A stretch of 58,766 nucleotides of DNA. Origin: Candidatus Uhrbacteria bacterium. Lineage in GTDB: Bacteria; Patescibacteriota; Patescibacteriia; 2-12-FULL-60-25. The position numbers and the translations under genes are program-made. Under the pieces are notes generated by a model. That model was not told the DNA's origin. It saw only the letters and a program-made list of their open reading frames with translations, and did not search any database. The stretch spans positions 1 through 58,766 of the forward strand of contig SICT01000001.1 in NCBI GenBank assembly GCA_009691315.1, in the 5' to 3' direction. Of this stretch, positions 3,092 to 51,204 are shown in pieces. Numbering within the stretch: the first letter of the stretch is position 1; every line of letters begins with the position of its first letter.

Positions 3092-3109
3092 CAAAGACAA
3101 AAACTCTTC

Positions 3110-22674: not shown

Positions 22675-22695
22675 ACTTTTTTCTTTTTTTTCTCT

Positions 22696-22732: not shown

Positions 22733-22772
22733 ATATCCTCAATAAAATACTATAGTACTTTATTGAGGATAT
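22733..22772. repeat. 40-bp AT-rich near-perfect palindrome
   Basis: In atatcctcaataaaatacta|tagtactttattgaggatat I count 19 of 20 positions as complementary. It sits between the purM and purQ terminators. Confidence 0.8.
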
Positions 22773-22782
22773 ATTGAAAAAC

Positions 22783-22814
22783 AAAAAATCTCCCTTTGCA
22801 TAAAGCGCTGGGAG
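22783..22814 (-). terminator. Rho-independent terminator of purQ
   Basis: On the minus strand the stem CTCCC-N15-GGGAG is followed by aTTTTTTg, 14 nt after the stop. Confidence 0.5.
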
Positions 22815-22827
22815 AAAGAAAAATGAA

Positions 22828-23574: not shown

Positions 23575-26438
23575 GGGAACACCTCTCGCATGGGGTTTTT
23601 CCAGGCAGCTCGCAGATCCTCGAGCGTAATCTTGAAGCCGGAATAAGGACCAGTACGGCCAATGATGACCTGCTCTACCATGGTCTGACCAATCATGAAC
23701 CACGGTAGATCTCCCAAAAGTTTTTCCAGATCAACTCCAGGCGGAACCTCCACCAAGAAGCATCCTGGATTTTCACTAAAGAACACTGTCCGTGCTATCG
23801 GCCCATGACCCAGACGAGTCAGGTCGATATCTGCGCCGATGTTTCCACCAAAGCACATTTCTGCGAGCGTGACAGCAACGCCACCTTCGCTCACATCATG
23901 GCAAGCAAGAATTTCACCAGCCACAATCAACTCGTGCAGACGTCGAAAGATGCGTGGCAGGAGTTTGAGATCAACCTGCGGGACTGACGTGCCGAGCTGG
24001 CCATGTAGGTCGTAGAACACGGACCCACCAAAATCATAGCCATCCAGTTTGCCCAGAAGAATGATTTTCGAGCTTGGATATTTGAAATCCGTACTCATCG
24101 TCTTCGCGACATCTGGAATACGGCCGAACACCGAGATGCACAGCACCGGCGGAATGTCGATGACGGTTCCGTCTTTGCCGCGATAGGTGCTGGACAGGCT
24201 GTCCTTGCCTGAGACAAACGGCAGACCAAATGCATCAGCCGCCGCCACACAGGCATCAACCGCACGATCAAGCGCTCCAAGCCAGTGCTCTGTTGGCGCT
24301 GGCCAGATAAAGTTATCAATGAACGCAGCCTCACCCTTAACCGGATTGCCGCCGACGGCGACAAAATTCGCGAGAGCTTCTGTGATGGCCCAGAGTGTTC
24401 CGGCGTACGGATCGATCTGGTTGAGCACGGGATTGATTCCGTGCGACACCACCATGCCGTATGGCTTACCAGGGAGCAGGCGCAAGACGACCGCGTCATT
24501 GGGCGCGTCGCCCTTACACCCACCGTACGGAGGCAGGACATTGGTCCCTTGCACCCCGTGATCATAGCGGCGAACAATCGGCTCTCGCGAGCAGACATTC
24601 GGATGTGCCATCACACGCTTATACAAGGCACACCAGGAATCATTATCATTGTCACGAGGTACATTGATTACAATTGATTGGGCCAATGAAAACGGCTGCC
24701 ACTTGGCTGTGAGCGTCCGCTTGGGCATACCGTGGTGCAGGAATTCCATTTCCAGATCACACACGACAACACCATCGTAGAGCACAACCAGCCTATGCAA
24801 GTCAGTGAAAACGCCAAGCACTGTTGCTTCGACATTCAAACTCACACAGATTTCGAGGACAGCTGTCACATGTTCCGGCGCGACTGCAAGGACCATGCGC
24901 TCCTGTGATTCGCTCACCCAGATTTCCCAGGGATGCAAACCGCTGTACTTGAGCGGCGCACGATCGAGCCAAACCCGAACGCCCGTCTTCGCCCCCATCT
25001 CGCCAATGGCGGATGAGAAGCCGCCAGCCCCGCAATCTGTCACCGCTCGAATGAGACCAGCATCACGACAGGCGAGAAGTGCCTCCATGGTGCGTTTTTC
25101 CTCGATCGCGTGACCGATTTGCACGGCGTTTGCGTTGACTGAGGCGGTGCGATCGGTCATGGCCGCAGACGAAAATGTCGCGCCATGAATTCCATCGCGA
25201 CCGGTTTTGCCACCAAGCACGATGATCTTGTCACCGACTCTGGGCTCACCTTTTTCCACGCACGTCTCTGGCATGATGCCGTAGGCGCCGACAATTACAC
25301 TCGGCTTGGCGCGGAATCCTTCGTGAAAATGGAACGACCCGTTGGCCGTCGGAACGCCCATGCGATTGCCATAATCCCCAACCCCGCGCACCACTTCGCG
25401 CAGAATATGGCCGGGATGCAGACAACCGGGCGGGACCAATTCGGATTTCAAATCCCACGGCCCGAGACAAAACATGTCGGTGGACAACACAACACGTGCG
25501 CCCAAACCCGTACCCATGATGTCGCGGAACACCCCACCACTACCGGTTGCGGCTCCGCCATAGGGCGCGGTTGCGCTCGGACTGTTATGCGTCTCGACTT
25601 TTCCGCAGATGGCTTGTCCATCATAAAACGGAATGACGCCGGCATTGTCGTGGAACATGGAGAGGACGCCCGACGCATGACGCCTGGACGCGCCCTTCAA
25701 CCGTTCCATGAGCGAGGGCTTGGGACAACCGTCAACGATGAGCTCTGCATTGAACGTCTTGTGACTGCAATGCTCACTCCAAGTTTGGGCCAGCGTCTCG
25801 AGTTCGACATCCGTCGGATCTCGATTCAAGTCTGTGAACGCCGATTGAACAGCTTGCATTTCTTCGAGCGACAGAAACAGCTTGTCGCGCGACAGAGCCA
25901 TGAGCGCTTCGTCACTCATCCCGCCAAGCGGAATGGTTGTGACAGAACCGCGTACTCCTTCGATCAGGAGTGTGGTCGGCTCATTTTTCACCACCTGCGA
26001 AACCGTGGGGTTGACCAGCAGTCGAGCAACGATCTCATCGATCTGTGCCCGACTCACCTGCTGACCATAGAACGTATATTCTGTGCTCACGTCCACGGCC
26101 TTGAGATTGGTCAACCTGAAATCACTTGCCACTTTCATGAGAGACGCCGCCGCAGGGTTCATCACCCCCGGCTTGTACGCCACTTCAACGGTGCGCTGAC
26201 CCTCCATCAAAAGCGGCGCATTGAGCGACCACGTCTGATCGATCGATTCGACAAGCACCCGCAAGGCGAACTGTTCCGCCTGCTCGGAGCCAAGTCCTTC
26301 CATTTCCAACCGATAGACGGTCACGACCCGAACAGCCGTGAGCATCAGGATCCCGAGCGCGTTCTCGATGGTTCGATGCAACGCCCGTCCCGCACTGTCG
26401 TGTGCGGGAATACTCGCTACGCGAATGGTATAAATCAT
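23571..26438 (-). CDS. purL: Phosphoribosylformylglycinamidine synthase II with two N-terminal PurS-like modules (PurS-PurS-PurL fusion)
   Basis: I trimmed the ORF to the ATG at 26438, which is preceded by aaggagg. ...LAQTWSEHCSHKTF... is the PurL signature. The first ~180 aa contain two PurS-like units (IRVASIP...LVESID and VEVAYKPGVMNPAAASL...ARLLVNPTVSQ). Confidence 0.9.
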   Translation of the reverse strand: MIYTIRVASIPAHDSAGRALHRTIENALGILMLTAVRVVTVYRLEMEGLGSEQAEQFALRVLVESIDQTWSLNAPLLMEGQRTVEVAYKPGVMNPAAASLMKVASDFRLTNLKAVDVSTEYTFYGQQVSRAQIDEIVARLLVNPTVSQVVKNEPTTLLIEGVRGSVTTIPLGGMSDEALMALSRDKLFLSLEEMQAVQSAFTDLNRDPTDVELETLAQTWSEHCSHKTFNAELIVDGCPKPSLMERLKGASRRHASGVLSMFHDNAGVIPFYDGQAICGKVETHNSPSATAPYGGAATGSGGVFRDIMGTGLGARVVLSTDMFCLGPWDLKSELVPPGCLHPGHILREVVRGVGDYGNRMGVPTANGSFHFHEGFRAKPSVIVGAYGIMPETCVEKGEPRVGDKIIVLGGKTGRDGIHGATFSSAAMTDRTASVNANAVQIGHAIEEKRTMEALLACRDAGLIRAVTDCGAGGFSSAIGEMGAKTGVRVWLDRAPLKYSGLHPWEIWVSESQERMVLAVAPEHVTAVLEICVSLNVEATVLGVFTDLHRLVVLYDGVVVCDLEMEFLHHGMPKRTLTAKWQPFSLAQSIVINVPRDNDNDSWCALYKRVMAHPNVCSREPIVRRYDHGVQGTNVLPPYGGCKGDAPNDAVVLRLLPGKPYGMVVSHGINPVLNQIDPYAGTLWAITEALANFVAVGGNPVKGEAAFIDNFIWPAPTEHWLGALDRAVDACVAAADAFGLPFVSGKDSLSSTYRGKDGTVIDIPPVLCISVFGRIPDVAKTMSTDFKYPSSKIILLGKLDGYDFGGSVFYDLHGQLGTSVPQVDLKLLPRIFRRLHELIVAGEILACHDVSEGGVAVTLAEMCFGGNIGADIDLTRLGHGPIARTVFFSENPGCFLVEVPPGVDLEKLLGDLPWFMIGQTMVEQVIIGRTGPYSGFKITLEDLRAAWKNPMREVFP

Positions 26439-26476
26439 CTCTCGGCCTCCTTGGCACAAGTGTCTGGTTTCGAAGA

Positions 26477-26673
26477 ACACCGTTCGAATATCGAACGGTG
26501 TCCGGAGCCTAACCTGTTTCTATTTTTGTGGCAATTTGATTCTTTGGGCTCAGATTCCTCCTCTTTTGGAAAGAGGAGGTGAGGAGGAGTTAAAAACAAA
26601 AGGGTTATGTGGTACCAGGTACCAATAATCTCCGGTTTTTAACTCCCTCGATCCCTCTTTCCACAAAGAGGGA
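26477..26673. repeat. Cluster of four strong hairpins in the secF-purL spacer
   Basis: H1 is acaccgttcga-ata-tcgaacggtgt (26477-26501). H2 is cctcctcttt-tgg-aaagaggagg (26557-26579). H3 is ggagttaaaaac-N37-gtttttaactcc (26586-26646), with ggtaccaggtacc in its loop. H4 is tccctcttt-ccac-aaagaggga (26652-26673). H2 and H4 share the CCTCTTT/AAAGAGG stem. Confidence 0.8.
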
Positions 26674-27580: not shown

Positions 27581-29626
27581 TTATTCTTGTTTGTTGCGCG
27601 GTTTAAGAAATAACCAACCATTTTTCGCGATGGGTGTACCCGCCAAAAATCGCAAGATCGTCCGACTGGATACAACGGCCGTAAAAAGAGAGATGAGCGT
27701 ACCAATGGCGAGCGTGAGCGCGAATCCCTTAATCATGGATGAGGAGAACCAATACAACACGGCACACGAAATCAAAACCGTCGCGTGTCCGTCTCGAATC
27801 GATAACCAAGCACGTTTAAACGCATCTTCAAGTGCCAGCGTAAGTCCTTTCCCTTCCATCCATTCCTCTTTCAACCGTTCAAACACAAGCACATTCGCAT
27901 CAACCGCAATGCCCAATGACAGAATAAATCCTGCAATGCCAGAAAGGCTCAAGGTTACGGGAATCATTTTGAACACCGCGGCAGAAACGGCCGCATACAA
28001 AAGAAGTGCAACAATCGAGACAACCCCTGGCAAACGATAGAGCGCGATCATGTACAAGGCGACCAGCAAAAATCCGATCAGTCCAGCTTTCAAAGATTTT
28101 TGCAAAGAATCTGCGCCAAGCGTTGGTCCGACGGTTTGTTGGGCAATCAATTTAATCGCGACCGGAAGCGCACCGGCCTGCAAACGCTGAGCAAGAAGTT
28201 TCGCTTCATTCAAATTAAAACTTCCAGTAATCACCGCTTGCCCGCCCAAAATTTCATTCTGTACGGTTGGGACGGAAATCGGCTGACCATCCAAAAAGAT
28301 GGCGACCGATTTGCCCACATTGCGTTTGGTGATGTCCGCGAATAGTTTTCCGCCTTCGCTATTAAATTGAAGAGCGATCTGGATCGCACCCGTGCGCTGA
28401 TCAAACTCGACACGCGCTGACTGCAATTGTTTTCCGGTCAGAGCTGTTGCTTTCCAAGGATCAACCGGCGGCGCAAGATCTTCTGGTGTCAATTTTTTGA
28501 TTTCAATCAAACGCACATGAACGTCCTTCACAGGTCGTTCCTCCAACTTCCAAATAATGTGAAAACCAAATGGTGTTTCCACGACATCAGAAATAGTCCC
28601 GACTTTCTGAACAAATACCACTTTCTCGAATTCATCCACCATATCTCCTTTCCCAAACCAACTCAGATCACCTTTTGATTCGACCGCTCCAGGCTCCTGG
28701 GAATTTTCTGCAACCAATTTATCAAAATTCGCCTGGGTGATTTGCGCCTTTATCTTATCAATCTTGGCTCGCGCTTCCTCTTTCGTATAAGTCGAAAGAT
28801 CACCACGTGCACCTTTATAACTGATCAGTACATGTTTGGCATGAATTTGGGTTCCTGCATCTTTTACCTCTTCCACTTTCGCGATCGTTAAATAATGTGG
28901 ACGCTCAATCGGCAATGGCAAAACCGTTCCCGCTGGCAAATCTTTGGCTTTAGAATAAATATCGCTGACTTCAGATTTATCCTTAATAAAACCCAAATCA
29001 CCACCAGACTCTTTTAACGCAGGATTTTCCGTTTTTTCTTTGGCCAGCGCAGCAAAGTCTGTACCTGGTTTTTTTGCCTGCATCAAAATTTGATCAACGC
29101 GTTTGTTCGCATCCACATTTGTCTGATCCATCTCCTTTTTCTGTTCTTCGGTCAACACCGGCGTTTTCTGATCATTCTGTTCTTTAAATTCCAAAATTGG
29201 CGTTTCCCCAATCAACTTAATTGCTTGATTGATATCGCGGATACCGGCCAGTTCGACCGTCACGCGCCAGGCATTGCCCGCTTGAGTCGTTTGAATGAGC
29301 GGTTCAGAAACGCCAAGCGTATTCACACGACGCTCAATCACATCACGCACCCCATCAAGTGCACTTTTACGATCCGCATCCGCTTGCTTGGAAACATCTG
29401 CCTCATATTCCAAGTGCGTACCACCTTGAAGATCAAGCCCAAGCACAAATGGTTTCTGAATTTGACCCAAGTTGATCCCAATAAGACTTTTTGCTTGAGC
29501 AAGCAGCCAATTCGCTGGAGCCGGATAGGACAAAGAACCCGTCACAATAAACAAAACGAGAAGCCACAGAATGCGGTTACGAATGGTTCGCTTAGATTGA
29601 ATGGGGTTTCTTTTCAGAGGAGGCAT
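27581..29626 (-). CDS. secD: Protein translocase subunit SecD carrying an inserted tandem parvulin-like region
   Basis: LGLDLQGGTHLEYE..., ...RRVNTLGVSEPLIQ... and ...VAIFLDGQPISVPTVQNEILGGQAVITGSF...LAQRLQAGALP plus the C-terminal TM bundle identify SecD. It is 681 aa because of an insert at aa ~150-385. Confidence 0.93.
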   Translation of the reverse strand: MPPLKRNPIQSKRTIRNRILWLLVLFIVTGSLSYPAPANWLLAQAKSLIGINLGQIQKPFVLGLDLQGGTHLEYEADVSKQADADRKSALDGVRDVIERRVNTLGVSEPLIQTTQAGNAWRVTVELAGIRDINQAIKLIGETPILEFKEQNDQKTPVLTEEQKKEMDQTNVDANKRVDQILMQAKKPGTDFAALAKEKTENPALKESGGDLGFIKDKSEVSDIYSKAKDLPAGTVLPLPIERPHYLTIAKVEEVKDAGTQIHAKHVLISYKGARGDLSTYTKEEARAKIDKIKAQITQANFDKLVAENSQEPGAVESKGDLSWFGKGDMVDEFEKVVFVQKVGTISDVVETPFGFHIIWKLEERPVKDVHVRLIEIKKLTPEDLAPPVDPWKATALTGKQLQSARVEFDQRTGAIQIALQFNSEGGKLFADITKRNVGKSVAIFLDGQPISVPTVQNEILGGQAVITGSFNLNEAKLLAQRLQAGALPVAIKLIAQQTVGPTLGADSLQKSLKAGLIGFLLVALYMIALYRLPGVVSIVALLLYAAVSAAVFKMIPVTLSLSGIAGFILSLGIAVDANVLVFERLKEEWMEGKGLTLALEDAFKRAWLSIRDGHATVLISCAVLYWFSSSMIKGFALTLAIGTLISLFTAVVSSRTILRFLAGTPIAKNGWLFLKPRNKQE
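28538..28852 (-). other. Parvulin-type (PpiC/rotamase) PPIase module embedded in the SecD periplasmic domain
   Basis: IHAKHVLISYKG...ANFDKLVAENSQEPGAVESKGDLSWFGKGDMVDEFEKVVF...GTISDVVETPFGFHIIWKLE is collinear with the E. coli PpiC pattern (HILV...ADFGKLAKKHS.CPS...GGDLG.F..G.MV..FD.VVF......P..T.FGYHIIKV). A degenerate second copy lies just upstream (aa ~175-252). Confidence 0.85.
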
Positions 29627-31893: not shown

Positions 31894-31922
31894 TTGACCT
31901 TTGTTTGACTATTTGCTTAACT
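31894..31922 (+). promoter_or_regulatory. Sigma-70-like promoter for the Met/Cys-rich lipoprotein gene
   Basis: The signal is TTGACC-N17-TTAACT. It is followed by a ~110-nt leader with several short hairpins. Confidence 0.4.
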
Positions 31923-32035
31923 CTGTCTTCCGGAGTAATCTGGAGTTAAGCGAAGCGGGATCAATGTGGTCCCGCCTCGATGCACCTCGAGAAAAAATCC
32001 GACCTGCGACAGCGGGCGGTAGAAAGGGACTGAAA

Positions 32036-32680
32036 ATGATGATCCGAAACGTCTCTCTCCTCTGCCTCGCGCTCGCCGCAGGTTCGGCCTGCAGCGCCCC
32101 GGACATGATGCCCCCACCCGGAATGATGGGTGACGGGCCGGACATGGCCAAGGTCGTTCCTCCGGGATCCGACCTCGCCGGCATGATGATGACCGGCGGC
32201 GACATGGTGATGAACGCCAATGCCTGTGCTTCTTGCGTCATGGGTCAGACCATGCTGAAGGATTGCATGGACATGATCAGTTACTGCATGGACAAGGCTA
32301 CGGACACGAACCAGTGCCCCAAGACCTGTTCATGCGGTTTCGACCTCCCAGGCGGGGAGTGTCCCATGGGCAAGCCATTCAACTGGACCATGCAAGTCGT
32401 GGGCCAGACCTGGTCGTGCGATGGTCAGCCTGCGTTCGAACCCAAACAGTTGAGCCAGGATGGCGAGCCACTACGCGTGGACTTCCACATGGGCGGTGAT
32501 ACTAATCACGCGACTTGTGTGGGAGACTCATGCTGGTACCGAGCATCATATTCCCCACTTCTTAAGGTGGCGCGTGTTCGATTCACGAGTGCAACTTCGG
32601 CCGTGATCGAATCGTGGCCCAAAGGCTGGGACGTTTCGACGAAACCTGGAGGTATCGTCGGTAATTGTACGCAGTTCTAA
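32036..32680 (+). CDS. Met- and Cys-rich lipoprotein (putative metal-binding)
   Basis: I trimmed the ORF to the ATG-ATG at 32036, which is preceded by aaaggga. MMIRNVSLLCLALAAGSAC has a lipobox. It is followed by MMPPPGMMGDGPDM...AGMMMTGGDMVM and many Cys. The gene is GC-rich. Confidence 0.65.
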   Translation: MMIRNVSLLCLALAAGSACSAPDMMPPPGMMGDGPDMAKVVPPGSDLAGMMMTGGDMVMNANACASCVMGQTMLKDCMDMISYCMDKATDTNQCPKTCSCGFDLPGGECPMGKPFNWTMQVVGQTWSCDGQPAFEPKQLSQDGEPLRVDFHMGGDTNHATCVGDSCWYRASYSPLLKVARVRFTSATSAVIESWPKGWDVSTKPGGIVGNCTQF

Positions 32681-32751: not shown

Positions 32752-35700
32752 CTAACCTATTGTTTCTGCACAAATATCATTAAAGATTACACAACCCACG
32801 GGACAATGAGGTGCTGAATACTCCTTACAATTTCTGAGTCCACAGTATGGATTGTTAACATCAGTATTAACACAACCAATGGGACAATTAGGTTTTTTGT
32901 ACGCACTGCAATTAGGTCCTGGTTGAGGTGTTTTGGACTTAAGATTCTCATCTTCCTGTGTTTGCAATTCACCACTTGAACGTAGTTGCAATGATCCTGG
33001 ATACACGATCCAAGGACGATAGTTCTGCGTATATCCACTATTCAAACTCTGAAAATCTGGATTTGTTGAATTGCATTCGTTATTCAATAGCCTACCGAAT
33101 GTTGCCCGCACCTCGTTAGTAGATTTAATTGTACCTTCTCGTATTCCATCAGCTAGTCCCCAAGAATAACAGCCACCATATGGATGTAAAACTTCATTAT
33201 CAGATCCATCATCCTGTAACTGATTATCTTTAATCTTGGTCCGACACTCTCCTGAACACCAGCCCCAATTATCTTGCAGCATAACGCGCGGAGTAAAGCG
33301 GCATGCATTTACTTTTTTATCCCAACAACCACGGTTTGGAGCCAATCCCGTTGGAATACAGATGTCCCCTGCTGCACAACGGAGTGGGATATTGCCTATT
33401 TCCTGTTGCGGTGTTGTACAACCGCGATTCGGATCTCGGGAACAACGTCCTTCCAAAAATTTCTTCGGTTCTTGCTGTTGATTCACAGGCCACTCAAATT
33501 CGCACGCGGGCAGATCGCCCGTGCCGCCGCAATAGTATTGGTGGCTGAATTCGAAATAATTGGGCTGGCAAGCCTCACCACTATTACCGAAGAACGTACG
33601 GTATATACATTGATCTTTAGCTTTGCCAATCGTGCAATCAGAGTCAGAATGACAAGTTTTGTATTGTTTTTTGGAACAGGTGCCGAGCGGCGCACAACGA
33701 CCCGCACCAGCGGGACAATCAACATCCGTATTGCAGGTGATTCCCCATCCGCGGATCGGATCATCACACTCGCTCTGAGTTGCGCAGAATGGTTTATGAT
33801 TTTTCAAGCTTGCATCAGCAATTTTTTGCTGAAACCCATCCCCCCAATCAACGGTCACGTTCTTGAGCGGCATCTGCTCATGACTGGCCCAACCATAAAA
33901 CTTGAGAGAGGCTTTATGCTGACCGCCAGCAGCATTCACAGCACCATCGGATTGACCATCAAAAGAGAACATATCTAAGCGTTGAATGGAGCATTGGCCA
34001 GGCGTGTCACACTTGCGGGCATCAGGTGCCGCAATCCGTGGTGGATGAGGGGTGTAGTAGGCAATGGTGTCAGTGAATTGCTGAATCCGAGGAACATCTG
34101 CTGGAATAGGATCATAGCCTAAAAATTGAGGGGTGTAGTGCCCAGGTGTGACATTGGTCGGAGGAAGGTTATCCGAAAGGAACGGATCCAAACCTTCTTG
34201 TTTGCCGTTTATGTTCTTCGTAAAATTATAAACTGTTAATCCGCACGATTCATCGCTTGGATCCGGACATTGTTTTATATCGGGTTGATATTCGGTTCCG
34301 GTCCATTGATATATGCGATAAATTTTGGCGAACAGATTTGTCAGATAGTGCCAAGATCTGCCATAAGGAGGGACATTGAGCTCAACGAATCCTTTTGGAT
34401 CATTTGGATCAGGCACTTTACAGCACGTTTCTTTTCGAAAGAAACTCCCGATTCCGGCACCCAAGAAAGTTGGTGGCTTCAGGGAAGAGAATCCAGCCAC
34501 ATTCCCACCGCTTTGGAACAACGGATCTGTTCCAGCCGGTCCGGTATTTAACGCGCTCGAAAATGGGGCGAAACGAGAACCATATTGAAATCCAACACCG
34601 GGAGCCGTAAAATTTCCGTTCTTCCACACACGATCGGTAAAAGCGGCATTTTGACGAGAGTCACGACTGATGACTTCCGCGAGTTGCGTACAAATACTCC
34701 CATAATTAACCTTGATATTCATATAGATATATCTCATATCATTTGCCTGACCTCCACAGGTCGAGACCCAAAATCCCTGTAAACTCCACGGGCCATTGAC
34801 AGCTTTAGACTGAAACACCCCCCGAATGGAAAAGTAAGGTTTATCACTGGTACATTTTTCCGTATAAGCAGTTGATCGAATATGACTTAATTGACGTTTG
34901 ACACTGCTGGCATCAGGCGGATCAAACGGTTTCAGCGAATCTTTAAAGAGAGAAATGAAGTTTGTTTGCCCGCTACTCCGATAATCCGTTTGCCAAGTCT
35001 TCATAAAGCACTTGCCTGGCTCATTCACACAATCCACTTCCAAAGGTTGCCCTTGAGATCCTTTGAACAGGGTATCAGCTCCTCGACCCAGAATAGGCTT
35101 ATAGTTCTCAAAAAATTTCTGTCGCCATTCCACATCCTTGGCCTTGGTGCTATCCCCTTCATTATAATCTACCTCCCCTAAGCCATCGACCCAGTCCGCT
35201 TGATATCCGCAGGCTAAACGGCCCATATCATTTGGATTTTCGATCGGGGAAATGCTGATATAGGCCAGGCTCTTATCTTTATTGTCCCCACCATTGAATT
35301 CTAGTATTGGTTTCTCCAATTGAAAAAATGTTTCGGTATAACTTTGATCTGGACTACTTCCAGCATCAACCAAACGTACAGCCGAAAGATCACGGTCATT
35401 GTCTCCCTCATCTTGATCATCATCTGCCAACTCACACTGCTCGGCGTTTGGACTGAATTCAGGACGATCCCCCACGAGCGAAGCACCTGGATATCCCCCA
35501 ACGGCCGAGTCTCTGCCATTTGATGTGAAATTATCATCGTAATTGAATTTGAACATACTCCCAGCATAATTAGAGTCTGGCTTACCTTCATTCTGCTTTT
35601 TTTCATCATGTTCACCAACAAAATCCACATCCGTTAAAGAACGCGCGCTCGGTGGATCAGCTTTTGATAAACAGTAGTACTGGCCTGAATTTTCTGGCGG

Positions 35701-38700
35701 GAAATAGCCGGCCGTCGGCACATAATGATAGGGATCTTTTTCCCCAAACAAAATTGGCGTTGGATTCCACGTTAAGCATGGGTGCTGAGTCACATCATCT
35801 CCAGTAATGCGTGTCATGTCGCGCTCCAAACATTGTCCAAAAATTCCGTTGACTATTTGCGATTTACGGAAAGCCACGCATCTCCCGCCTTGTTCCGGTG
35901 GTCCGCAGGTTTGAGAGGCATTAGACCCTTCAATCGCCAATTTCTGTGGATTTTTTGGATCTGTCTGCGGTATTTTAAATATCGCTTCCGGCAAACACGA
36001 CTGTCCGGCGCGCGGTCCGCCCGCGCACACCCCGGGCAAAACATGTGAAGAAAACACATCGTAAAACTTGATGATACCGGCATCTGGATATTCCACACGT
36101 TTATAACTGCAAGCACAATCTTCACCGTATTCACAGATGTTGGCTCCGGTAAAACTGGTTAACCGTTGTTTCGGTTGAGCAGGATTTTTGGACGTATCCC
36201 AATCAATCGCATACGAAGAAGGGAATGGAGCATCCGCTTCCGGATAAGCTCGACACTCCGCACTCGGAAATGCCTGACTCAAAGCCTGATCATGGGTTGG
36301 ATTAGGCTGAGCAAATTTTAAAGTCACATTCTGAAAATCTAAGCCAGTGTCTTTGGCATTGACCGCCACATAGCAAAGGAATGAACGGCCTGAACTTAAG
36401 GCTTGCAAGTATTCATTCAAACGATAATACCCAATTCTCCCAGTGCCAACATGCTTACACAAAAACAGTTGAGGATTCGCTTTAGACAACGGGTCTTCTT
36501 TATCGAGCTTGATTGCTTCATAGCTCTTGGGACTTGGGTTCAAAAGGAATTTATTTGGATTCTGAGGATCCACGATTACTGGGATGACAATAGCAGCGGC
36601 CAAACGATAATCCAAGGCAAACCGATATTTGTTATTTGCTACATTCCCTGCCCCATCCGCACCAGGTTTCGCCGTGGTCAGGTCCGGCACCTGAAATGAA
36701 TTCGGGATGGTGTAACCAGAATAATCATTTTCCCCCAAACCGATCCTCCGACTCGCGTATTGGTTGACGTCAAAGAATGCGCCGCGGGTCAGCGTTGGTT
36801 CCGTACTCGTCGTCGCACGATTCACATAATGTGCGCAGAAAATATCACCGTTCTCATGGCTCGCCTGATCGCATAACGCCAAATTCGTACAAATATCTTT
36901 ATATTTATTGCTGCTGCGATCAAACACTGTTTCGGCACTCTTACACCCCAACCACTGCGAACAATCACGATCCACGTTTACTTTAATCAACAAATTGGCA
37001 TCATTTTCTCTCGTTCCTCCAGGCTTACTGCACGATCCTGTAAAATCGTGGGTATGAGTCAATAAAACCGGGTTAATAATCTCTTTATCAACAATCTTAT
37101 AATTACATTCCGCATCCCGTTCACACACATTGCCTTCCCATGGATTGATCTTTGTATCCACAACCCCCAGAAAATTGGTCGTGACAATCGTTTCCTGTCC
37201 CTGACACTTCTTGGCTTGACAATTTGCATCCTTTGATCCCAAACAACTCACAGGCGTGGTGGGCGTAAACAATTGATCGCGATATTTTGCATAACTGGCA
37301 GACACGTTGTAACTCAATTGCGTATCACTCAAATTATTCAACAAGATACAGCCCTTCCCAACATCTACACTCCCATTACACGTGGCGGTATCAAATTTCT
37401 GCGGATCATAAATAAAGAAGTATGGCTTACCGGTTTTATGTGATGGATCTGATACATCATTTGGATCGCGCAATTCCGAACACTCCCCTTGATCCTGCGG
37501 ACACAACCCTCCCCATCCCTGATATTCCGTGTCACCTGTGCGCAGAAGATTAAACGTCTGACCGTTTTCCAAGACCAGCGGATAACACGGAAGCGTTGTC
37601 CCCTTCTCAAACCAACCAGAATAGGTACCGACCGCTAAATTTTTAATCCCTGAATTATCTCCGGTTAATGGAACATTCTCTTTATATTCACAGGTGTGAT
37701 TTCCTGGATCGCGGAAATATTCTTTTCCTCCGGTCGCCGGATTAAATTCCTGACAAAAAAGTTCAGATGGCCGGCACAAACCCTGATCGTATTTCGTAAT
37801 GTCATCTTTATAATAAACCGTGGCGAACGTGGATGTCGCATCCAAACTCAAACGATTTTGGGTATATTTTGGTTTTCCAAACGCCCGGCACGAGGCATTT
37901 TCTGGTTGACAATGTTTGCTCGGATCATCAATCAAATACAAATAGCGATCGGCCGAACGGGTGGTTGTTGCGCCACCAAATCCTGGAATCACTGGTTTGT
38001 CTTCCATAACGAATGTTTGTTCACCCGTGTCAGCTGAATTCCGCGTATCAATAAATCCAGTACAGCTGATCGCCTGTTGACGACACAAGCGCGAGAACTG
38101 ACGAATGTCTACTTTTTGCCCATCGCGCCGCTTGTATTCGCGACAACCTAGCATGGCTTGCGGTTGAGGGACTCCGCCTAATCCGGTATCACACTCATTC
38201 GGTGTCTTCCAAGTATTGGCTCGCACATAGGCCATATCCGGAATAAGAGTCACCGTTACTTCATCCAGATAAACAAGAGGCGTCGCAGCACTCCAAACGA
38301 GCGCGGTTAGCTTACTCCCACTCCAACCATTAAACGGACCCACCGAATATCTCTGCCAATCCGGTGTCAGATTCACCGTACCGACCACGGTCTTTTTTCC
38401 TAAATCTTTTGGATCTGCTGTTGATACGAACAATGGAACAGAGCTGGTCGCGGCTGGTCCTTTGGCCCAAAAGGTCACGCGGAATAAGTCGGTCGGAGTT
38501 GAAGTGACAGATACGCTCGCCTGTACAATCTTGTCTTGCGGCTTATTTTTTGCTGGGATCCGCAACGACGAATCACCGACTAAAAGTGATTCACTTGATT
38601 TTTCTCCACCGACAAACGCCCCAATCCCATCTCGAAAATTTTGTGCCAAGACCGTTTGCATGTTACCAGACTCTGCTCCCGCATAAGCGCGACAAGAAAT

Positions 38701-41700
38701 TGCTTGTGCACTACACACCCGACTTTCCGGGGCAAACAACGAATACACACACTCCCCTGTGGATGCCTGAAACGTTCCACCTGTTTTTTTACAGTCATCT
38801 ATATTCCGATTGTTCAAACGATAATCTTTACACTGATCCGTCGATAACACGGTCTGAGAATAATAACGATAAAAAACATGGCCATCCGCATCGTAAAATT
38901 GTCGGCAATCCGGATCAACGCCGCTCCGCCAATTGGCTTCACTACACGTTTTTGGGTCTTTAAAACTTACCTGATCTGGACCACGTTTGAGCAACAGAAG
39001 TGGCCCGCCAGCGACTTCCCCGGGCAAAACATTGGCATTTGGATCTTGCTTCATGCTCCAACTACGTAATTGAAATCCGGCGGTGTCTGATCCTTCCCAG
39101 GTAAAAAATGTTTTGGAATTTTTATCTGGCTTTTCACAGGCGCGTACATAACTATAGTAAGCCGTCCGCTCACCGCCACCTGCACTCGCCTCCACATTGG
39201 TAAATTCTTCACAACCGACTTGCTCCTGTGTACAGGCTTGAGCTGTGGCAGGAATAAAAAAGTCTGTCGCTGTGTCCGTAGGATCATCAAACTCTTTTAT
39301 ACTGTCATGTACCAAATCAAATGCTGACGGTTGTTTTCGATACTGGGCATAGCTGACACAGGTTTCCGGACAATAATCATTTGTACCGACAATCGCTGGC
39401 ACTTCTCCGCCTGCCAGCACATCGGTGTAGCCCTGACAGCCGGCTTCTGACTGACGACAGACTTGAGCAAATTTTGCACACAATGGATGATCCTTGCCTT
39501 CTCCACGGCAATTGAGATCTTCTGGCGCAAGTTTCATAAACGTCGCTGGCAAACTAGCATTCAACCCCGATGCAAATGGCGTAGCAAGCTCGCCTTCTTC
39601 CAATTGCAAAGCGTCTAGTAAGGCTGGCGAATTTTTATCATCTTGAGATAAGCTCATCACCGCGAAACGTGCATTGGCCGCGCTCAAAAAACTACATTCA
39701 TAGCGTCGCCAGTCTGTCGTAAGAGCCGGATGAGCACGTAAATCAACACTCTCAACTCCGAGTCCAGCTGGTTCACAGCCCGAACTACGAAAATCTTTAA
39801 TCGTAGCCGCCTTATCTATCATCAAATTTTTCTCCGTATATTGAATGATCTGCGCTTTAAATGATTCATTGCCCCCATCTTTTGTTCCACGTGCATAGAC
39901 AGAGAAGGTATACATGCGTCCGGAAGTAATTGCCATTTTTTGAATAATCGTTTTACCAAGCGACAACTCTAAAGCAGAGGCTGTATCAAATGAGGCCGTT
40001 CCACTCGCGACTTGGGGAATCGTGAAAGGGGTACCCGGCGACCAATTGGCCAGAGTTGGGGTCGATGTCCCAACGGCATTTTCAAATGAAGGATTCTGAA
40101 TCAGATTTAAGGCTGAATCACCAATTTGAAATGAATGGACCTTCGTACAACCTTCGTCTGATCCAGAACATGGCGCCAACGTCTTATCAAAGTAGATACG
40201 TGGGCCGGTTGAGGTCGTTCCCACCCACGCATCCGTACTTGTACTCAAAGCATTGCGCGTCGTCGCATACCACAAACATCCGACATTGCTAGCATCACAC
40301 GTTCCGTAATCCAACGTATTGCGCAGATAGGAAATCGCCCCGCCTCCAGGAGCTTGATAATTGCGACAGCTGGAAAAACGTGCCGGACATTCTTCGGCCT
40401 GAAAACGATAAACCGTTTTTTCTGCCATGCAGTAACCATAACCGCCCGTACACTCACCTTGATTGTTCCGCTTAAGACAGGTTTGAATGTCCTGACACTC
40501 TTCCCGACGCTGATTGATAGATGGAGATAAAAGCGTATCGCCAAAACCAGACAGCGTGCATTGTTGAGGAAACGACGTGATGACCCAGTTCGCATCAATC
40601 AAATGACACCATGGATATTTGGCATCACGCTGGCCCTGCGGATTGCACACGGAAAATCCTTTCACAACTTCAGACAACGTGGCACAACCACTAGAAGAGT
40701 TACACAAAGCCTGATTTTCCGCCGAATTCGCCGCCAGCTCAAATCCCACAGACAAAATACGCGCCAGTCGTAATTTCTGCAGATTGCCCGCACAGTAAGC
40801 TGTGTTAAAACAGTTCGGATCCTGATTCAGCTTGGTCATGCTGGTTGGAATCAGTCTGCGCGATCCATCCAAGAAACCTTTGCCCATCGCTTCGCCAACC
40901 GTAAAAGATCCCTGCTCACCCTGGCTCTGGACGGCCTGAATGAATTTTTGATCAATCGTACAATTCCACAAACCACGATAATCACTTGGACAACCTGAGA
41001 ACTCCGATACCACATCCACTTGCGCGACTTTTTGCAGGTTGGGCGTCTTCAAATCAATGTTCGCCGCACGCGCATCGGTTTTTCCTGCCGTCACAATCGC
41101 ATCTGGATTCGCCGCGACGTTCTGCCGCACGGCATCGGAATAATCAAAGGCACCGGTAAACCCTTTATCAAAAATGCGCTTCATGAATTTGGAAGCAAGC
41201 GTGTTCAAAAAAACCGAAGCCGTATAACTCGCCAACTGGATCGGACCTTCTTTAAACGCATTGCCCAAAATCGCTCCGGTTTGCGCAATCTGCGAAGCAT
41301 TGCCTTTTCTCACCGTTTCTTCTTTTGTCGCTTCAGACACGACTTCGCTCGGCGTTTTGACATTGCCTGAAATAATCCCGGAGACATCTTTAAACCCTTT
41401 GCCAACCTCACGTTCTTTCGTCGCAAAGGATACGGCATCCGTTGTTTTTAAAGTGACAGAATTCAAAATATTTACCGTGGCCCCAAGCTCACTCGTATTC
41501 GTATTCAAATTAAAATCAATCGTCGGATAGGTTTCCGCTTTTGTTAACGACGAGCCAAATGAATTCCAATTGTTAATCACATTCTGAAATTCACATTTTG
41601 GTTTTTGCGGTGAGTACTGCCCCTGACCAACACCAGACTGCGGGAAAAAATTACCCAGTGACAATTGGATCTTCAGCAGGTTGCTGGTATTGGGCTTACA

Positions 41701-42141
41701 CAAATTAAATCCAATATTCTTAAAAAATTCTGAATCTGACAATGAACCCATGGCCTCGCCCACCGCATCCTTGCCCACATCTGTCATGTTTTTCGCAAAA
41801 TTTTTGGTAAAAAACTGTGCCCCCTGACCCTTGCCACCTGACACAATATAGTTCGCCGCTTCATAGGCAAGACGACCTACTAAAAGCTGGGCCGCATTAA
41901 AAAAAGCCACAACCAGAGCACGGGTAATCTGAGAAATGATCGTCTTATAAGTGCTGTTAGCTGTTTCTGGCAGGTTGGCCATAACTGCACTTGGCATACC
42001 AACGCCAGTAACCGGCGGAGCATTCTCCGGCTGAGCTAACGCAAACTCTACAGATGGGCCGGCTAAACTCACACAAACAACCATAACAATCAACACCGAT
42101 TGCATGGCGCGAAAAAAAATCGAAGAGCGATTAATCTTCAT
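32752..42141 (-). CDS. Giant (3129 aa) secreted cysteine-rich surface protein with CBM4/9-like jelly-roll modules
   Basis: It is a single uninterrupted ORF with an N-terminal signal or anchor (SVLIVMVVCVSLAGPSVEFALA). A CBM-like module starts ...NLIQNPSFENAVG... and ends ...LLDALQLEEG (aa ~678-855). A second beta-sandwich-like module lies at aa ~1163-1300 (...YLDEVTVTL). A VTVDWGDG motif lies near the C-terminus. Cys is extremely frequent after aa ~380. Confidence 0.85.
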   Translation of the reverse strand: MKINRSSIFFRAMQSVLIVMVVCVSLAGPSVEFALAQPENAPPVTGVGMPSAVMANLPETANSTYKTIISQITRALVVAFFNAAQLLVGRLAYEAANYIVSGGKGQGAQFFTKNFAKNMTDVGKDAVGEAMGSLSDSEFFKNIGFNLCKPNTSNLLKIQLSLGNFFPQSGVGQGQYSPQKPKCEFQNVINNWNSFGSSLTKAETYPTIDFNLNTNTSELGATVNILNSVTLKTTDAVSFATKEREVGKGFKDVSGIISGNVKTPSEVVSEATKEETVRKGNASQIAQTGAILGNAFKEGPIQLASYTASVFLNTLASKFMKRIFDKGFTGAFDYSDAVRQNVAANPDAIVTAGKTDARAANIDLKTPNLQKVAQVDVVSEFSGCPSDYRGLWNCTIDQKFIQAVQSQGEQGSFTVGEAMGKGFLDGSRRLIPTSMTKLNQDPNCFNTAYCAGNLQKLRLARILSVGFELAANSAENQALCNSSSGCATLSEVVKGFSVCNPQGQRDAKYPWCHLIDANWVITSFPQQCTLSGFGDTLLSPSINQRREECQDIQTCLKRNNQGECTGGYGYCMAEKTVYRFQAEECPARFSSCRNYQAPGGGAISYLRNTLDYGTCDASNVGCLWYATTRNALSTSTDAWVGTTSTGPRIYFDKTLAPCSGSDEGCTKVHSFQIGDSALNLIQNPSFENAVGTSTPTLANWSPGTPFTIPQVASGTASFDTASALELSLGKTIIQKMAITSGRMYTFSVYARGTKDGGNESFKAQIIQYTEKNLMIDKAATIKDFRSSGCEPAGLGVESVDLRAHPALTTDWRRYECSFLSAANARFAVMSLSQDDKNSPALLDALQLEEGELATPFASGLNASLPATFMKLAPEDLNCRGEGKDHPLCAKFAQVCRQSEAGCQGYTDVLAGGEVPAIVGTNDYCPETCVSYAQYRKQPSAFDLVHDSIKEFDDPTDTATDFFIPATAQACTQEQVGCEEFTNVEASAGGGERTAYYSYVRACEKPDKNSKTFFTWEGSDTAGFQLRSWSMKQDPNANVLPGEVAGGPLLLLKRGPDQVSFKDPKTCSEANWRSGVDPDCRQFYDADGHVFYRYYSQTVLSTDQCKDYRLNNRNIDDCKKTGGTFQASTGECVYSLFAPESRVCSAQAISCRAYAGAESGNMQTVLAQNFRDGIGAFVGGEKSSESLLVGDSSLRIPAKNKPQDKIVQASVSVTSTPTDLFRVTFWAKGPAATSSVPLFVSTADPKDLGKKTVVGTVNLTPDWQRYSVGPFNGWSGSKLTALVWSAATPLVYLDEVTVTLIPDMAYVRANTWKTPNECDTGLGGVPQPQAMLGCREYKRRDGQKVDIRQFSRLCRQQAISCTGFIDTRNSADTGEQTFVMEDKPVIPGFGGATTTRSADRYLYLIDDPSKHCQPENASCRAFGKPKYTQNRLSLDATSTFATVYYKDDITKYDQGLCRPSELFCQEFNPATGGKEYFRDPGNHTCEYKENVPLTGDNSGIKNLAVGTYSGWFEKGTTLPCYPLVLENGQTFNLLRTGDTEYQGWGGLCPQDQGECSELRDPNDVSDPSHKTGKPYFFIYDPQKFDTATCNGSVDVGKGCILLNNLSDTQLSYNVSASYAKYRDQLFTPTTPVSCLGSKDANCQAKKCQGQETIVTTNFLGVVDTKINPWEGNVCERDAECNYKIVDKEIINPVLLTHTHDFTGSCSKPGGTRENDANLLIKVNVDRDCSQWLGCKSAETVFDRSSNKYKDICTNLALCDQASHENGDIFCAHYVNRATTSTEPTLTRGAFFDVNQYASRRIGLGENDYSGYTIPNSFQVPDLTTAKPGADGAGNVANNKYRFALDYRLAAAIVIPVIVDPQNPNKFLLNPSPKSYEAIKLDKEDPLSKANPQLFLCKHVGTGRIGYYRLNEYLQALSSGRSFLCYVAVNAKDTGLDFQNVTLKFAQPNPTHDQALSQAFPSAECRAYPEADAPFPSSYAIDWDTSKNPAQPKQRLTSFTGANICEYGEDCACSYKRVEYPDAGIIKFYDVFSSHVLPGVCAGGPRAGQSCLPEAIFKIPQTDPKNPQKLAIEGSNASQTCGPPEQGGRCVAFRKSQIVNGIFGQCLERDMTRITGDDVTQHPCLTWNPTPILFGEKDPYHYVPTAGYFPPENSGQYYCLSKADPPSARSLTDVDFVGEHDEKKQNEGKPDSNYAGSMFKFNYDDNFTSNGRDSAVGGYPGASLVGDRPEFSPNAEQCELADDDQDEGDNDRDLSAVRLVDAGSSPDQSYTETFFQLEKPILEFNGGDNKDKSLAYISISPIENPNDMGRLACGYQADWVDGLGEVDYNEGDSTKAKDVEWRQKFFENYKPILGRGADTLFKGSQGQPLEVDCVNEPGKCFMKTWQTDYRSSGQTNFISLFKDSLKPFDPPDASSVKRQLSHIRSTAYTEKCTSDKPYFSIRGVFQSKAVNGPWSLQGFWVSTCGGQANDMRYIYMNIKVNYGSICTQLAEVISRDSRQNAAFTDRVWKNGNFTAPGVGFQYGSRFAPFSSALNTGPAGTDPLFQSGGNVAGFSSLKPPTFLGAGIGSFFRKETCCKVPDPNDPKGFVELNVPPYGRSWHYLTNLFAKIYRIYQWTGTEYQPDIKQCPDPSDESCGLTVYNFTKNINGKQEGLDPFLSDNLPPTNVTPGHYTPQFLGYDPIPADVPRIQQFTDTIAYYTPHPPRIAAPDARKCDTPGQCSIQRLDMFSFDGQSDGAVNAAGGQHKASLKFYGWASHEQMPLKNVTVDWGDGFQQKIADASLKNHKPFCATQSECDDPIRGWGITCNTDVDCPAGAGRCAPLGTCSKKQYKTCHSDSDCTIGKAKDQCIYRTFFGNSGEACQPNYFEFSHQYYCGGTGDLPACEFEWPVNQQQEPKKFLEGRCSRDPNRGCTTPQQEIGNIPLRCAAGDICIPTGLAPNRGCWDKKVNACRFTPRVMLQDNWGWCSGECRTKIKDNQLQDDGSDNEVLHPYGGCYSWGLADGIREGTIKSTNEVRATFGRLLNNECNSTNPDFQSLNSGYTQNYRPWIVYPGSLQLRSSGELQTQEDENLKSKTPQPGPNCSAYKKPNCPIGCVNTDVNNPYCGLRNCKEYSAPHCPVGCVIFNDICAETIG

Positions 42142-49543: not shown

Positions 49544-50071
49544 ATGGGTACCGCAGCAGCACATTCAACCGACGCGGATCGCTGTCAGGCGACTGCCTTC
49601 TTCTGCAGTGACTACCGTCACTGGAACGGGCCACTGAACATCTCGCAGGCTCTACGATCGCTCGTCGGGCATGCAGGATTCGACAAAATCGCAAAACCCG
49701 GAGCAATCCATGCTCTGGTTCATGGCGAGGAACATCATCGCCGCGCCATCCTGGATGATCTCAGCGACCTCGTGTCGCTGCATCAACCCGAATGGATCTA
49801 TCTCATCCCCCACACCGATTGTGGAAAATATCGACTCAGCTTTGGGCAACGAGACGAAGCTGAGCAGCGCCAGCAGCTGATCCAGGATCTGGCGACAGTC
49901 ACCACCCTGATCCTCAGATACTACCCATTGGTCAGGGTCCGGTCGTTCATCGCCGTGATGAAGCCCGACACCCTGAGCGATCTGGAAGAGGTGACCTCCT
50001 TGGTCGCCGCTCATATCGCCTCCCTACCTTCTTCCATGAACGATGATCAAGATCATCGAGGCACGGACTAG
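49544..50071 (+). CDS. Beta-carbonic-anhydrase-like protein 2, highly divergent
   Basis: FCSDYR (C21, D23, R25) and HTDCG (H90, C93) are present. KPGAIHAL sits at the position of the R-x-AGN strand. Confidence 0.5.
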   Translation: MGTAAAHSTDADRCQATAFFCSDYRHWNGPLNISQALRSLVGHAGFDKIAKPGAIHALVHGEEHHRRAILDDLSDLVSLHQPEWIYLIPHTDCGKYRLSFGQRDEAEQRQQLIQDLATVTTLILRYYPLVRVRSFIAVMKPDTLSDLEEVTSLVAAHIASLPSSMNDDQDHRGTD

Positions 50072-50184: not shown

Positions 50185-51204
50185 ATGCCTACACTTCACC
50201 AACGCATCCTTGAAATTAACGCGGAAAAATCAATGCAATACACTACCGACGAATCTGCCCGTAATCGTTATTGGGCCAGTCATCCAACCTTTTTTGCCTG
50301 CATTAAATGTATGGATGGCCGGGTAAATTTTCCGGTCATGACCAAAACACCCGTCGGGATTGTAAAACCATTTCGGGCGATTGGGGGAAAATTCGAGGCC
50401 TGGTGGCCAAGTTTTTTAGGCCGCGTGCGACACTGGGTAGAGAAAGCGGAATCCATGGGTTGCCGAAGTTTTATTTTTGTTACCTACCACTATAGCGCCA
50501 GTGATGCACATTTAGGTTGTGCGGGCTGGAAATATGATACCAAAGCCGCCCGCGCCCATGCGGAAAAATTACAACAAGAGCTTTCTTATATTTTTGGAGA
50601 ACAGATGACGGCCATTGTCGCAGGTGTTGAGACGGATCATGATCTTTTGACACTTCATGGCCCGCACGCAGACCTCTCCGGGGAGATGCTTGCGGGCAAA
50701 AGTGAGGCAGAGGTCTACCAAACGATTGCCTCGATTTTTCCAGACATGAATCAGCAAACCAATCATGATCTGGCACCATTTTTATTGGGCAATGCCGGGC
50801 GGGTAGAAGAACTCACTCGTCAACCACGAGACCTCAAACAAAAAGGTCACAATGAACGGATTATTGCCGTAGGTCAAGGATTTGACTGGCTGGTGGAAGA
50901 AAATCTCGCACTCATCATCAACGACGCGGATCCAAATTTAGCCGACTCCATCCGCGTTGCCGGATCGTTGATTGAAAAGAATTTAAAAGATGCTCCTCCC
51001 GGAGATGACGCCACGATTTTTACCTCGATCCCTTATCGCAATCCAGGCCTGGATTATCGGCAAGCTGTGGTCCGATCACAAGGCCTGCGCTTATTTGCCG
51101 AACGAGTCCTGCAAGAATCTTTTCCTGATCTCATGAAATCTGGTCGATTACACTCTCTCGCGGCTGTGATGTGGGAGGCAAACAAAAAAATCGAAATCAT
51201 CTAA
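50185..51204 (+). CDS. Beta-carbonic-anhydrase-like protein 3 (339 aa, with an extra C-terminal domain)
   Basis: CMDGR (C42, D44, R46), FRAIGG, and HLGC (H109, C112) within YHYSASDAHLGCAGW are present. The start is uncertain, with an alternative ATG 16 codons downstream. Confidence 0.5.
   Translation: MPTLHQRILEINAEKSMQYTTDESARNRYWASHPTFFACIKCMDGRVNFPVMTKTPVGIVKPFRAIGGKFEAWWPSFLGRVRHWVEKAESMGCRSFIFVTYHYSASDAHLGCAGWKYDTKAARAHAEKLQQELSYIFGEQMTAIVAGVETDHDLLTLHGPHADLSGEMLAGKSEAEVYQTIASIFPDMNQQTNHDLAPFLLGNAGRVEELTRQPRDLKQKGHNERIIAVGQGFDWLVEENLALIINDADPNLADSIRVAGSLIEKNLKDAPPGDDATIFTSIPYRNPGLDYRQAVVRSQGLRLFAERVLQESFPDLMKSGRLHSLAAVMWEANKKIEII

Follow-up and report, generated by a model that had tools for sequence, protein, structure and literature searches.

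The Candidate Phyla Radiation (CPR), or Patescibacteria, accounts for a large share of bacterial diversity, and its cultivated members live on other cells. Almost no molecules acting at the CPR-host interface are known besides type IV pili. Large exported Cys-rich proteins encoded by Peribacteria, a CPR lineage, have been proposed to function in attachment and/or rigidity (PMC4736985), and host recognition or attachment has been proposed for giant membrane or surface proteins of 1392-4163 amino acids (aa) of Vampirococcus lugosii, a predator from the CPR (PMC8080830). This paper describes a gene in a 58,766-nucleotide (nt) stretch of a Candidatus Uhrbacteria genome (assembly GCA_009691315.1, contig SICT01000001.1, positions 1 to 58,766; hereafter the window) that encodes a Cys-rich protein of 3129 aa (the giant protein), and the adjoining gene for a small membrane protein with TSP3 repeats (the partner).

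With a length of >1000 aa, a signal peptide, an elevated Cys content and a CPR origin, the giant protein falls within the descriptive class of CPR large Cys-rich extracellular proteins. It resembles the Peribacteria proteins in being very large, equipped with a signal peptide, rich in Cys, encoded by ultrasmall CPR bacteria and devoid of functional annotation. However, compared by description, the Peribacteria set is a cluster of about 14 genes from another lineage that varies between strains and has 7.2±2.4% Cys (PMC4736985), whereas the giant protein is the product of one single-copy, highly conserved gene, contains 3.9% Cys, and has a fixed TSP3 partner. The V. lugosii proteins are likewise giant CPR envelope proteins (PMC8080830), but these employ WD40, PKD, integrin, fibronectin and saposin domains, while the family of the giant protein is almost without recognisable domains.

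A giant protein family with a fixed partner

The giant protein appears to be the founding-type member of a large family that has so far been neither described nor named, and whose giant extracellular proteins belong to Uhrbacteria-type CPR/Patescibacteria. Large Cys-rich proteins as such were already known in CPR; what appears to be new is the size, the fixed architecture, the C-x6-C hairpin, the obligatory TSP3 partner and the lack of a detectable structural analogue, and literature searches returned no published description of the family. A word-indexed protein search yielded 105 homologous clusters, all annotated as 'hypothetical' and mostly of 2300-3860 aa (one, located on a short contig, is 1767 aa), and the same set was found again with a 33-sequence profile. 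A HMMER profile of aa 38-680, searched against 1.84 billion representatives of 50% identity clusters, matched 1629 proteins with E<=1e-3, of which 1164 reached E<=1e-30; among the best 150 matches the head is located at approximately residues 35-700 of proteins that are mostly 2500-3900 aa long, and the shorter matches are probably fragments. Searches with the C-terminal domain alone returned contig-end fragments only, with no alternative architecture, and no relatives were encountered on viral contigs. Cluster names, where given (a minority), are Candidatus Uhrbacteria or Magasanikbacteria and otherwise refer to unclassified groups, never to Peregrinibacteria. A scan at one genome per GTDB species detected 75 loci, a single one per genome. 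The metagenome-assembled genomes that carry the giant gene (among loci L002-L075) are often titled 'uncultured Gammaproteobacteria'; their local synteny is Uhrbacteria-like, and the titles look mislabelled.

The original prediction for this locus, made from the DNA letters and their translations, described a single open reading frame (ORF) for a secreted giant protein in which a Cys-poor head precedes a Cys-rich chain, and each of these elements was recovered. The frame starts at an ATG and contains no internal stop over its 3129 codons. Its closest relative (P0002) aligns colinearly over aa 3-3117, so that neither a frameshift nor an assembly join is indicated, and full-length colinearity extends to the 105 homologues (1767-3858 aa). 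Of its 121 Cys (3.9%), the signal peptide has one and the mature chain the other 120; C148 and C183 are the sole Cys from the end of the signal peptide to aa 384, confirming that the head is poor in Cys. The signal peptide coincides with the most hydrophobic 19-mer of the protein (Kyte-Doolittle hydropathy 2.19) and is found in every homologue inspected, with conservation of the AxA↓Q/A site at which it would be cleaved.

Hydropathy analysis detected neither a further strong transmembrane (TM) segment nor a C-terminal hydrophobic segment in the giant protein, an LPXTG motif occurs in the last 60 aa of 0 of the 105 homologues, and the giant protein contains no GGxGxD (RTX), CXXC or RGD motif. 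Two established adhesin types were considered and rejected, namely the LPXTG or sortase-anchored adhesins, as the motif and the C-terminal hydrophobic segment are both lacking, and the RTX giant adhesins of type I secretion systems, as GGxGxD is absent and an N-terminal signal peptide is present. With neither an LPXTG or RTX signal nor a C-terminal anchor, the giant protein must be retained non-covalently if it stays at the cell at all, and the membrane-anchored partner would be the obvious candidate for holding it.

The partner gene has the same orientation as the giant gene and ends 6 nt ahead of its start codon (TAA-CTTTTC-ATG), in agreement with the predicted co-orientation with a gene for a membrane protein with Ca-binding repeats. 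It encodes an N-terminal TM helix (approximately aa 29-50), the TSP3 repeats DTDHDGLSDYDE and DSDSDGVPD, and a Cys that is conserved; the C-terminal part, approximately 110 aa in length, is without known relatives. In searches with TSP3_bac (PF18884) the window copy scored 23.8 bits versus a cut-off of 25, and 55 of 56 orthologues matched, with a best E-value of 7e-12; D88, D90, D92, E99, D115 and D119 are invariant. Judged by its sequence, the partner is a bacterial TSP3 repeat protein. In each of the 69 evaluable genome loci with upstream sequence, the partner gene directly precedes the giant gene, at a spacing of mostly a few to a few tens of nt and of approximately 500 nt at most. Taking all 71 loci with upstream sequence together, distant lineages included, each has a partner gene immediately upstream. 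The two genes stay together, 4-5 nt apart, even in two distant relatives with other neighbours, namely P0097 (30% identity, Magasanikbacteria-type) and P0102 (27% identity), which identifies the two-gene pair as the conserved unit. The additional neighbours of the giant gene in the window (nusA, yidC, secD/secF, hsp20, vanW and infB) reflect lineage synteny rather than function. A promoter and terminator scan remained at chance level, and Rfam detected no family at gathering score in the whole 58.8-kb window, tRNAs included.

In one locus of a distant branch (L077, 15470..21363) the giant gene is followed by three co-directional genes with spacers of 5-20 nt, encoding proteins of 1036, 369 and 549 aa without a Pfam hit. 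These genes are partly kept in L070, L072 and L075 and absent from the branch of the window; limited to this distant subgroup, they are no part of the core unit. In the window itself, a bacterial TSP3 repeat is located close to the N-terminus of the L,D-transpeptidase (YkuD) encoded at 16661..17257 (minus strand), so that this repeat recurs on extracytoplasmic envelope proteins beyond the partner of the giant protein.

The head is the best-conserved part of the giant protein among distant relatives, and the motifs AYDAAxYIASGGKGQ and YTASxFLNTLxSKL are kept in the family. The conserved middle region displays the motifs NDANxxxKVxxDRxCxQWLxC, CRAYPExDSPFP and GxCLExD...PCLTWxP, and matched nothing in the PDB by profile and nothing in Pfam. 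Motifs of the C-terminal domain are VTVDWGDG, FGNSxxAC..YFxFxHxYxC and DNWGWCxGxC. The first of these, predicted near the C-terminus, was indeed located at aa 2762-2769 (nt 33835-33858); its D-W-G-D is invariant in 48 sequences, and neither a PKD nor any other model matched it. Indel-rich regions comprise aa 680-860, 1650-1700, 1850-1950, 2160-2450 and 2550-2700, and near aa 2613-2618 the giant protein is devoid of Cys-rich inserts, 160-600 aa long, that occur in relatives. The C-terminal tail is common only to the giant protein and its closest relative (P0002, locus L001), with an alignment occupancy of 0.02-0.18.

Two CBM4/9-like jelly rolls had been proposed within the chain, and both segments showed sequence similarity to this family. 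Pfam, applied to the whole giant protein, to ten overlapping 340-aa tiles of it and to 14 close homologues, recognised nothing but CBM_4_9 (PF02018). The match in the giant protein is confined to aa 679-770 and lies below threshold (24.2 bits, E=4.8e-5, cut-off 25.9); 8 of the 14 homologues matched, the best of them at E=5.7e-9, and for some homologues a PF02018 hit had been precomputed. This first jelly roll is optional, with an alignment occupancy of 0.53-0.62 that corresponds to about 50-60% of homologues, and its absence in Pfam-detectable form from about 40-50% of them implies that it is not the core function. The second jelly roll, in which F1169, S1192, W1262 and D1293 are invariant, had no Pfam match and was detected with the family profile, which aligned aa 1214-1295 with PDB entry 1gui_A, the CBM4 of laminarinase 16A (E=1.5e-4, 21.9 bits). 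By sequence, aa 679-855 and 1163-1300 thus resemble CBM4/CBM9 modules (PF02018; CBM4 of the Thermotoga laminarinase 16A, 1gui), but they constitute only about 10% of the giant protein, their own scores are sub-threshold, the first copy is optional, and there is no catalytic partner domain. NCBIfam searches of the giant protein and PDB sequence searches with the single protein returned nothing, and profiles of the entire protein and of its head, middle and C-terminus retrieved from the PDB nothing besides CBM4 and a weak GP42 transglutaminase element. The possibility, raised along with the original prediction, that well-characterised domains account for the Cys pattern was not borne out: most of the protein is left unexplained by known domains or solved structures, the one Pfam match being CBM_4_9.

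The C-x6-C element and its probable disulfides

All ten strings that had been listed as copies of a C-x6-C-x2-aromatic motif were found (Table 1), eight of them ending in F/Y and two in V/L. Enrichment was evaluated by shuffling the chain from aa 381 onwards at constant composition (5000 shuffles in one run and 2000 in another), and the proposed excess over what Cys composition would give was clear. C-x6-C was observed 15 times versus 5.0±2.2 in the shuffled chains (z=4.8), a count reached in 1 of 5000 and 0 of 2000 shuffles. For C-x6-C-x2-[FWY] the counts were 8 observed versus 0.5 shuffled, and when V/L was also allowed at the last position 11 versus 1.1, neither being reached in 5000 shuffles. 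A second spacing, C-x5-C, which the earlier description lacked, was observed 13 times versus 5.0 (z=3.7), with most copies in the C-terminal half, where this spacing dominates. In a MAFFT alignment of the 105 homologues the ten C-x6-C pairs are 100% conserved, as is nearly every Cys of aa 148-1769. The family consensus per copy is approximately [aromatic strand]-x5-7-C-x5-[G/S]-C-x-x-[F/Y].

Profile-profile comparison (hhalign) aligned the ten segments in register over 15-28 columns, the highest probability being 95%, a relatedness test that is partly circular because the segments had been picked by the motif. A 31-position hidden Markov model (HMM) of all copies scored the ten sites at 8.6-23.9 bits, compared to a maximum of 4.8 bits in 200 shuffled proteins, and matched no other ORF in the six-frame translation of the window. 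In leave-one-out models, six of the ten copies (615, 895, 970, 1143, 1353 and 1411) scored above all shuffles, whereas four (585, 658, 1456 and 1547) were not recovered above shuffles. The C-x6-C motif is a genuine recurrent element of approximately 15-25 residues, and no free-standing domain. In line with the view that the module fits no nameable domain, it had no match in Pfam, NCBIfam, PDB sequences, or PDB and BFVD folds. The description of the protein as built around the module holds as to its recurrence but was overstated, as the element is confined to about a third of the chain and only six of ten copies are alike beyond their Cys spacing. The copies lie at irregular distances of 30-210 residues, all within aa 585-1557, and their flanks vary.

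The variable Cys come and go as neighbouring pairs (phi 0.95-1.0). This applies to C480/C486 (phi 1.00), C789/C816 (0.96), C2625/C2633 (0.96), C2803/C2809 (0.95), C2816/C2822 (0.96) and C2922/C2928 (1.00). Such paired gain and loss is the expected signature of local disulfides and thereby supports the invariant C-x6-C as disulfide-closed loops. The 120 Cys of the mature chain, mostly in close pairs, point to a putative total of about 60 local disulfides, and the C-x6-C-x2-aromatic pairs would close ten short beta hairpins within aa 585-1557.

Short disulfide-closed beta hairpins are known from rigid extracellular rods of eukaryotes, such as the furin-like Cys-rich repeats of EGFR, the Cys-rich domains of TNFR and laminin-type EGF modules. 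These modules are tightly tandem with defined Cys patterns, whereas the hairpins of the giant protein are 30-210 residues apart within larger beta units, and Foldseek against the PDB revealed no match to a eukaryotic Cys-rich hairpin module.

Two tiles were modelled with AlphaFold2, using 32 sequences for aa 38-680 (tile 1) and 29 for aa 1300-1640 (tile 2). In tile 1 (mean predicted local distance difference test score (pLDDT) 55.5) the head was predicted as long helices at low confidence (pLDDT 30-60), the first three hairpin modules were poorly modelled, and the only confident part (pLDDT 80-96) was aa 377-527, predicted as a compact helical, disulfide-bearing domain. Tile 2 (mean pLDDT 70.2, predicted template modelling score (pTM) 0.32) was all-beta with short strands; the second Cys of each module opens a strand, and the C-x6-C loops are least confident. 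An extended string of small units would agree with such an all-beta prediction of moderate pLDDT and low pTM, and of the disulfide-stapled solenoid that had been put forward for tile prediction the short beta strands of aa 1300-1640 were recovered, while the solenoid itself was not established. Foldseek against the PDB gave no meaningful match for tiles 1 and 2 (best E-values 3.1 and 0.85), and neither did tile 2 against BFVD (best E-value 0.21); with models this weak, these results are absence of evidence for a known fold and no proof of a new one.

Possible roles of the protein pair

The reading that we favour, and to which we give about an even chance, is that the giant protein is an exported, disulfide-stapled, extended surface fibre docked via its head to the TSP3 partner. 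Export and oxidative folding would produce a long and rigid multi-domain fibre on the cell surface, and the membrane-anchored partner would tether its conserved helical head to the envelope, possibly with the help of Ca2+. The lectin-like jelly rolls and variable inserts may then contact glycans or proteins of a host cell or a solid substrate, and, judged by analogy, an adhesive role as an attachment structure is plausible.

Several points weigh against this reading of a docked adhesive fibre. The surface location, the adhesion and the interaction with the partner are matters that we infer, and, given the weak models, the geometry of the hairpin disulfides and the shape of the fibre are likewise deduced and not seen; the C-x6-C loops remain mostly below pLDDT 50-70 in the AlphaFold2 tiles. 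CBM_4_9 is absent from roughly half of the family. Genes for DsbA and VKOR were not found in the 58.8-kb window; DsbA-like and VKOR oxidative-folding genes are widespread in CPR genomes (10.1101/335083). Finally, a single-copy, colinear and highly constrained family is unusual for host-specific adhesins, and its single-copy state, colinearity, synteny and near-invariant Cys fit a conserved structural organelle at least as well as an adhesin.

A broader proposal, which we advance tentatively and consider somewhat unlikely in its full extent, is that the pair constitutes a two-component surface organelle, so far undescribed, of Uhrbacteria and relatives. It would consist of a Ca-binding membrane dock and a disulfide-stapled fibre of approximately 3000 aa, assembled from folds without solved counterpart (head, C-x6-C units and C-terminal domain), and be the lineage's main apparatus for host contact or in the envelope. 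The family encompasses >1600 clusters, takes up about 1% of a genome of roughly 1 Mb and is co-inherited with its fixed partner. Apart from the optional CBM_4_9 it has no coverage in Pfam or NCBIfam, and those parts that were compared by fold resemble no solved structure. The family is thereby a concrete candidate for the surface architecture of a major CPR lineage, and may yield new disulfide-rich folds as well as a lineage marker gene.

Alternatively, the giant protein could be a conserved envelope scaffold, S-layer-like or wall-spanning, that serves cell shape, integrity or division and does not specifically bind a host or substrate; we regard this as fairly unlikely. A single-copy core gene in conserved synteny amid nusA, yidC, secDF and infB is what such a scaffold would lead one to expect, as is the near-invariance of architecture and Cys over >1000 clusters, and the partner is like other TSP3-bearing, membrane-anchored envelope proteins such as the L,D-transpeptidase encoded at 16661..17257. 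S-layer proteins, however, seldom reach 3000 aa with about 60 disulfides, and the lectin-like jelly rolls and indel-rich variable regions suggest contact with a ligand. Moreover, the wider neighbourhood is not kept in distant lineages, which makes the linkage to housekeeping genes incidental.

CBMs are usually appended to carbohydrate-active enzymes, which agrees with an extracellular enzyme or effector platform, in which one or more of the conserved domains, for instance aa 377-527 or the C-terminal domain, would act catalytically on host envelope polymers and the Cys-rich part would form a stalk. This explanation could also account for the invariant polar residues R458, E468, D1293, D1559, N1716, R1725, D2108, D2957 and N2958, and a 48-sequence profile of the C-terminal domain (aa 2690-3055) locally matched a GP42 transglutaminase (3tw5_A, 66 residues, E=0.0041). 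Nevertheless, neither Pfam and NCBIfam nor the sequence and fold searches of the PDB revealed a catalytic family, and we consider an enzymatic role improbable. The GP42 transglutaminases of Phytophthora sojae and Vibrio (PF16683, 3tw5) share with the giant protein the pattern C-S-x-D-x-D-C...C-x-I-R-T...C...F-x-x-S-H, but the match is confined to residues 83-148 of the 3tw5 chain, most family members have no match, and the family consensus contains no conserved CH dipeptide. PF16683 scored 9.1 bits on the window tile (E=0.66, threshold 25) and matched 5 of 48 relatives weakly, with a best E-value of 0.0071. Membership of the GP42 family was rejected, as the match lies outside the active site (Cys290-His, PMC10318531), and the similarity is treated as a putatively shared Cys-rich element.

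That the ORF is an artefact (mis-assembled or fused, a pseudogene or a prophage tail-fibre gene) has a negligible probability and is effectively refuted, as its extreme length and the compositionally foreign ORF on the opposite strand next to it (32036..32680) are set against an uninterrupted frame, colinearity with homologues of >75 independent genomes, a GC content of 46.4% that is like that of the window, and the lack of viral-contig relatives and of a BFVD fold match.

Feature coordinates and other genes of the window

The coordinates of the giant gene, its partner and the regions of the giant protein are listed in Table 1.

Table 1. Positions in the window of the giant gene, the partner gene and the regions encoded by the giant gene
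Feature	Residues (aa)	Position in window	Strand	Description
Giant ORF	1-3129	32752..42141	-	3129 aa, ATG start, stop codon within coordinates
Partner gene	263 aa	42148..42939	-	TM helix, two bacterial TSP3 repeats
Signal peptide (putative)	1-36	42034..42141	-	MKINRSS...EFALA↓Q; hydropathy, conserved AxA↓Q/A site
Cys-poor head	37-376	41014..42033	-	Predicted long helices, one Cys pair C148/C183
Compact helical disulfide domain (predicted)	377-527	40561..41013	-	Invariant R458, E468, W519
Module block 1	528-678	40108..40560	-	Three C-x6-C hairpins (putative)
Hairpins of block 1	585, 615, 658 (starts)	40357-40389, 40267-40299, 40138-40170	-	
Jelly roll 1	679-855	39577..40107	-	CBM_4_9-like, optional insert
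Module block 2	870-1160	38662..39534	-	Three C-x6-C hairpins (putative)
Hairpins of block 2	895, 970, 1143 (starts)	39427-39459, 39202-39234, 38683-38715	-	
Jelly roll 2	1163-1300	38242..38655	-	Family-wide, weakly CBM4-like
Module block 3	1301-1640	37222..38241	-	Four C-x6-C hairpins (putative)
Hairpins of block 3	1353, 1411, 1456, 1547 (starts)	38053-38085, 37879-37911, 37744-37776, 37471-37503	-	
Conserved Cys-rich middle	1700-2160	35662..37044	-	Alignment conservation
Poorly conserved indel-rich region	2161-2689	34075..35661	-	Alignment
Conserved C-terminal Cys-rich domain	2690-3055	32977..34074	-	48-sequence profile
C-terminal tail	3056-3129	32755..32976	-	8 Cys, two 'NC.aY..P.CP.GCV' units

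The ORF at 31901..32680 on the plus strand includes a coding region (32036..32680) for a Met- and Cys-rich protein of 214 aa. The N-terminus of this protein (MMIRNVSLLCLALAAGSAC) is signal- or lipoprotein-like, and parts of the chain are rich in Met (MMPPPGMMGDGPDM). The GC content of the gene is 58%, and 70% at third codon positions (GC3), versus 47% for the window, and 75 related loci yielded no homologue; the gene, located between the giant gene and nusA, has the appearance of a foreign insertion.

A purine-synthesis cluster at 21550..26480 comprises a purM-like gene (plus strand), purQ (minus strand) and a purL fused with purS (minus strand). CPR bacteria are usually without nucleotide synthesis. 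The GC content of the cluster (approximately 56%, GC3 61-64%) is well over the window average, and no such cluster turned up in the flanking regions of related loci, so that it was possibly acquired horizontally.

SecD (27581..29626, minus strand) carries a parvulin-type peptidyl-prolyl isomerase domain (Rotamase_3, aa 248-359) beside its P1 head subdomain; the protein has matches in 13 related loci and may act as a foldase coupled to secretion. A VirD4/TrwB-like type IV coupling ATPase (17261..19342, minus strand) adjoins peptidoglycan genes, which encode a D-Ala-D-Ala carboxypeptidase, a polysaccharide deacetylase and the above L,D-transpeptidase. Finally, two adjacent ORFs on the plus strand (49544..50071 and 50185..51204) display weak carbonic-anhydrase-like matches, to Pro_CA_2 and the CsoSCA catalytic domain.

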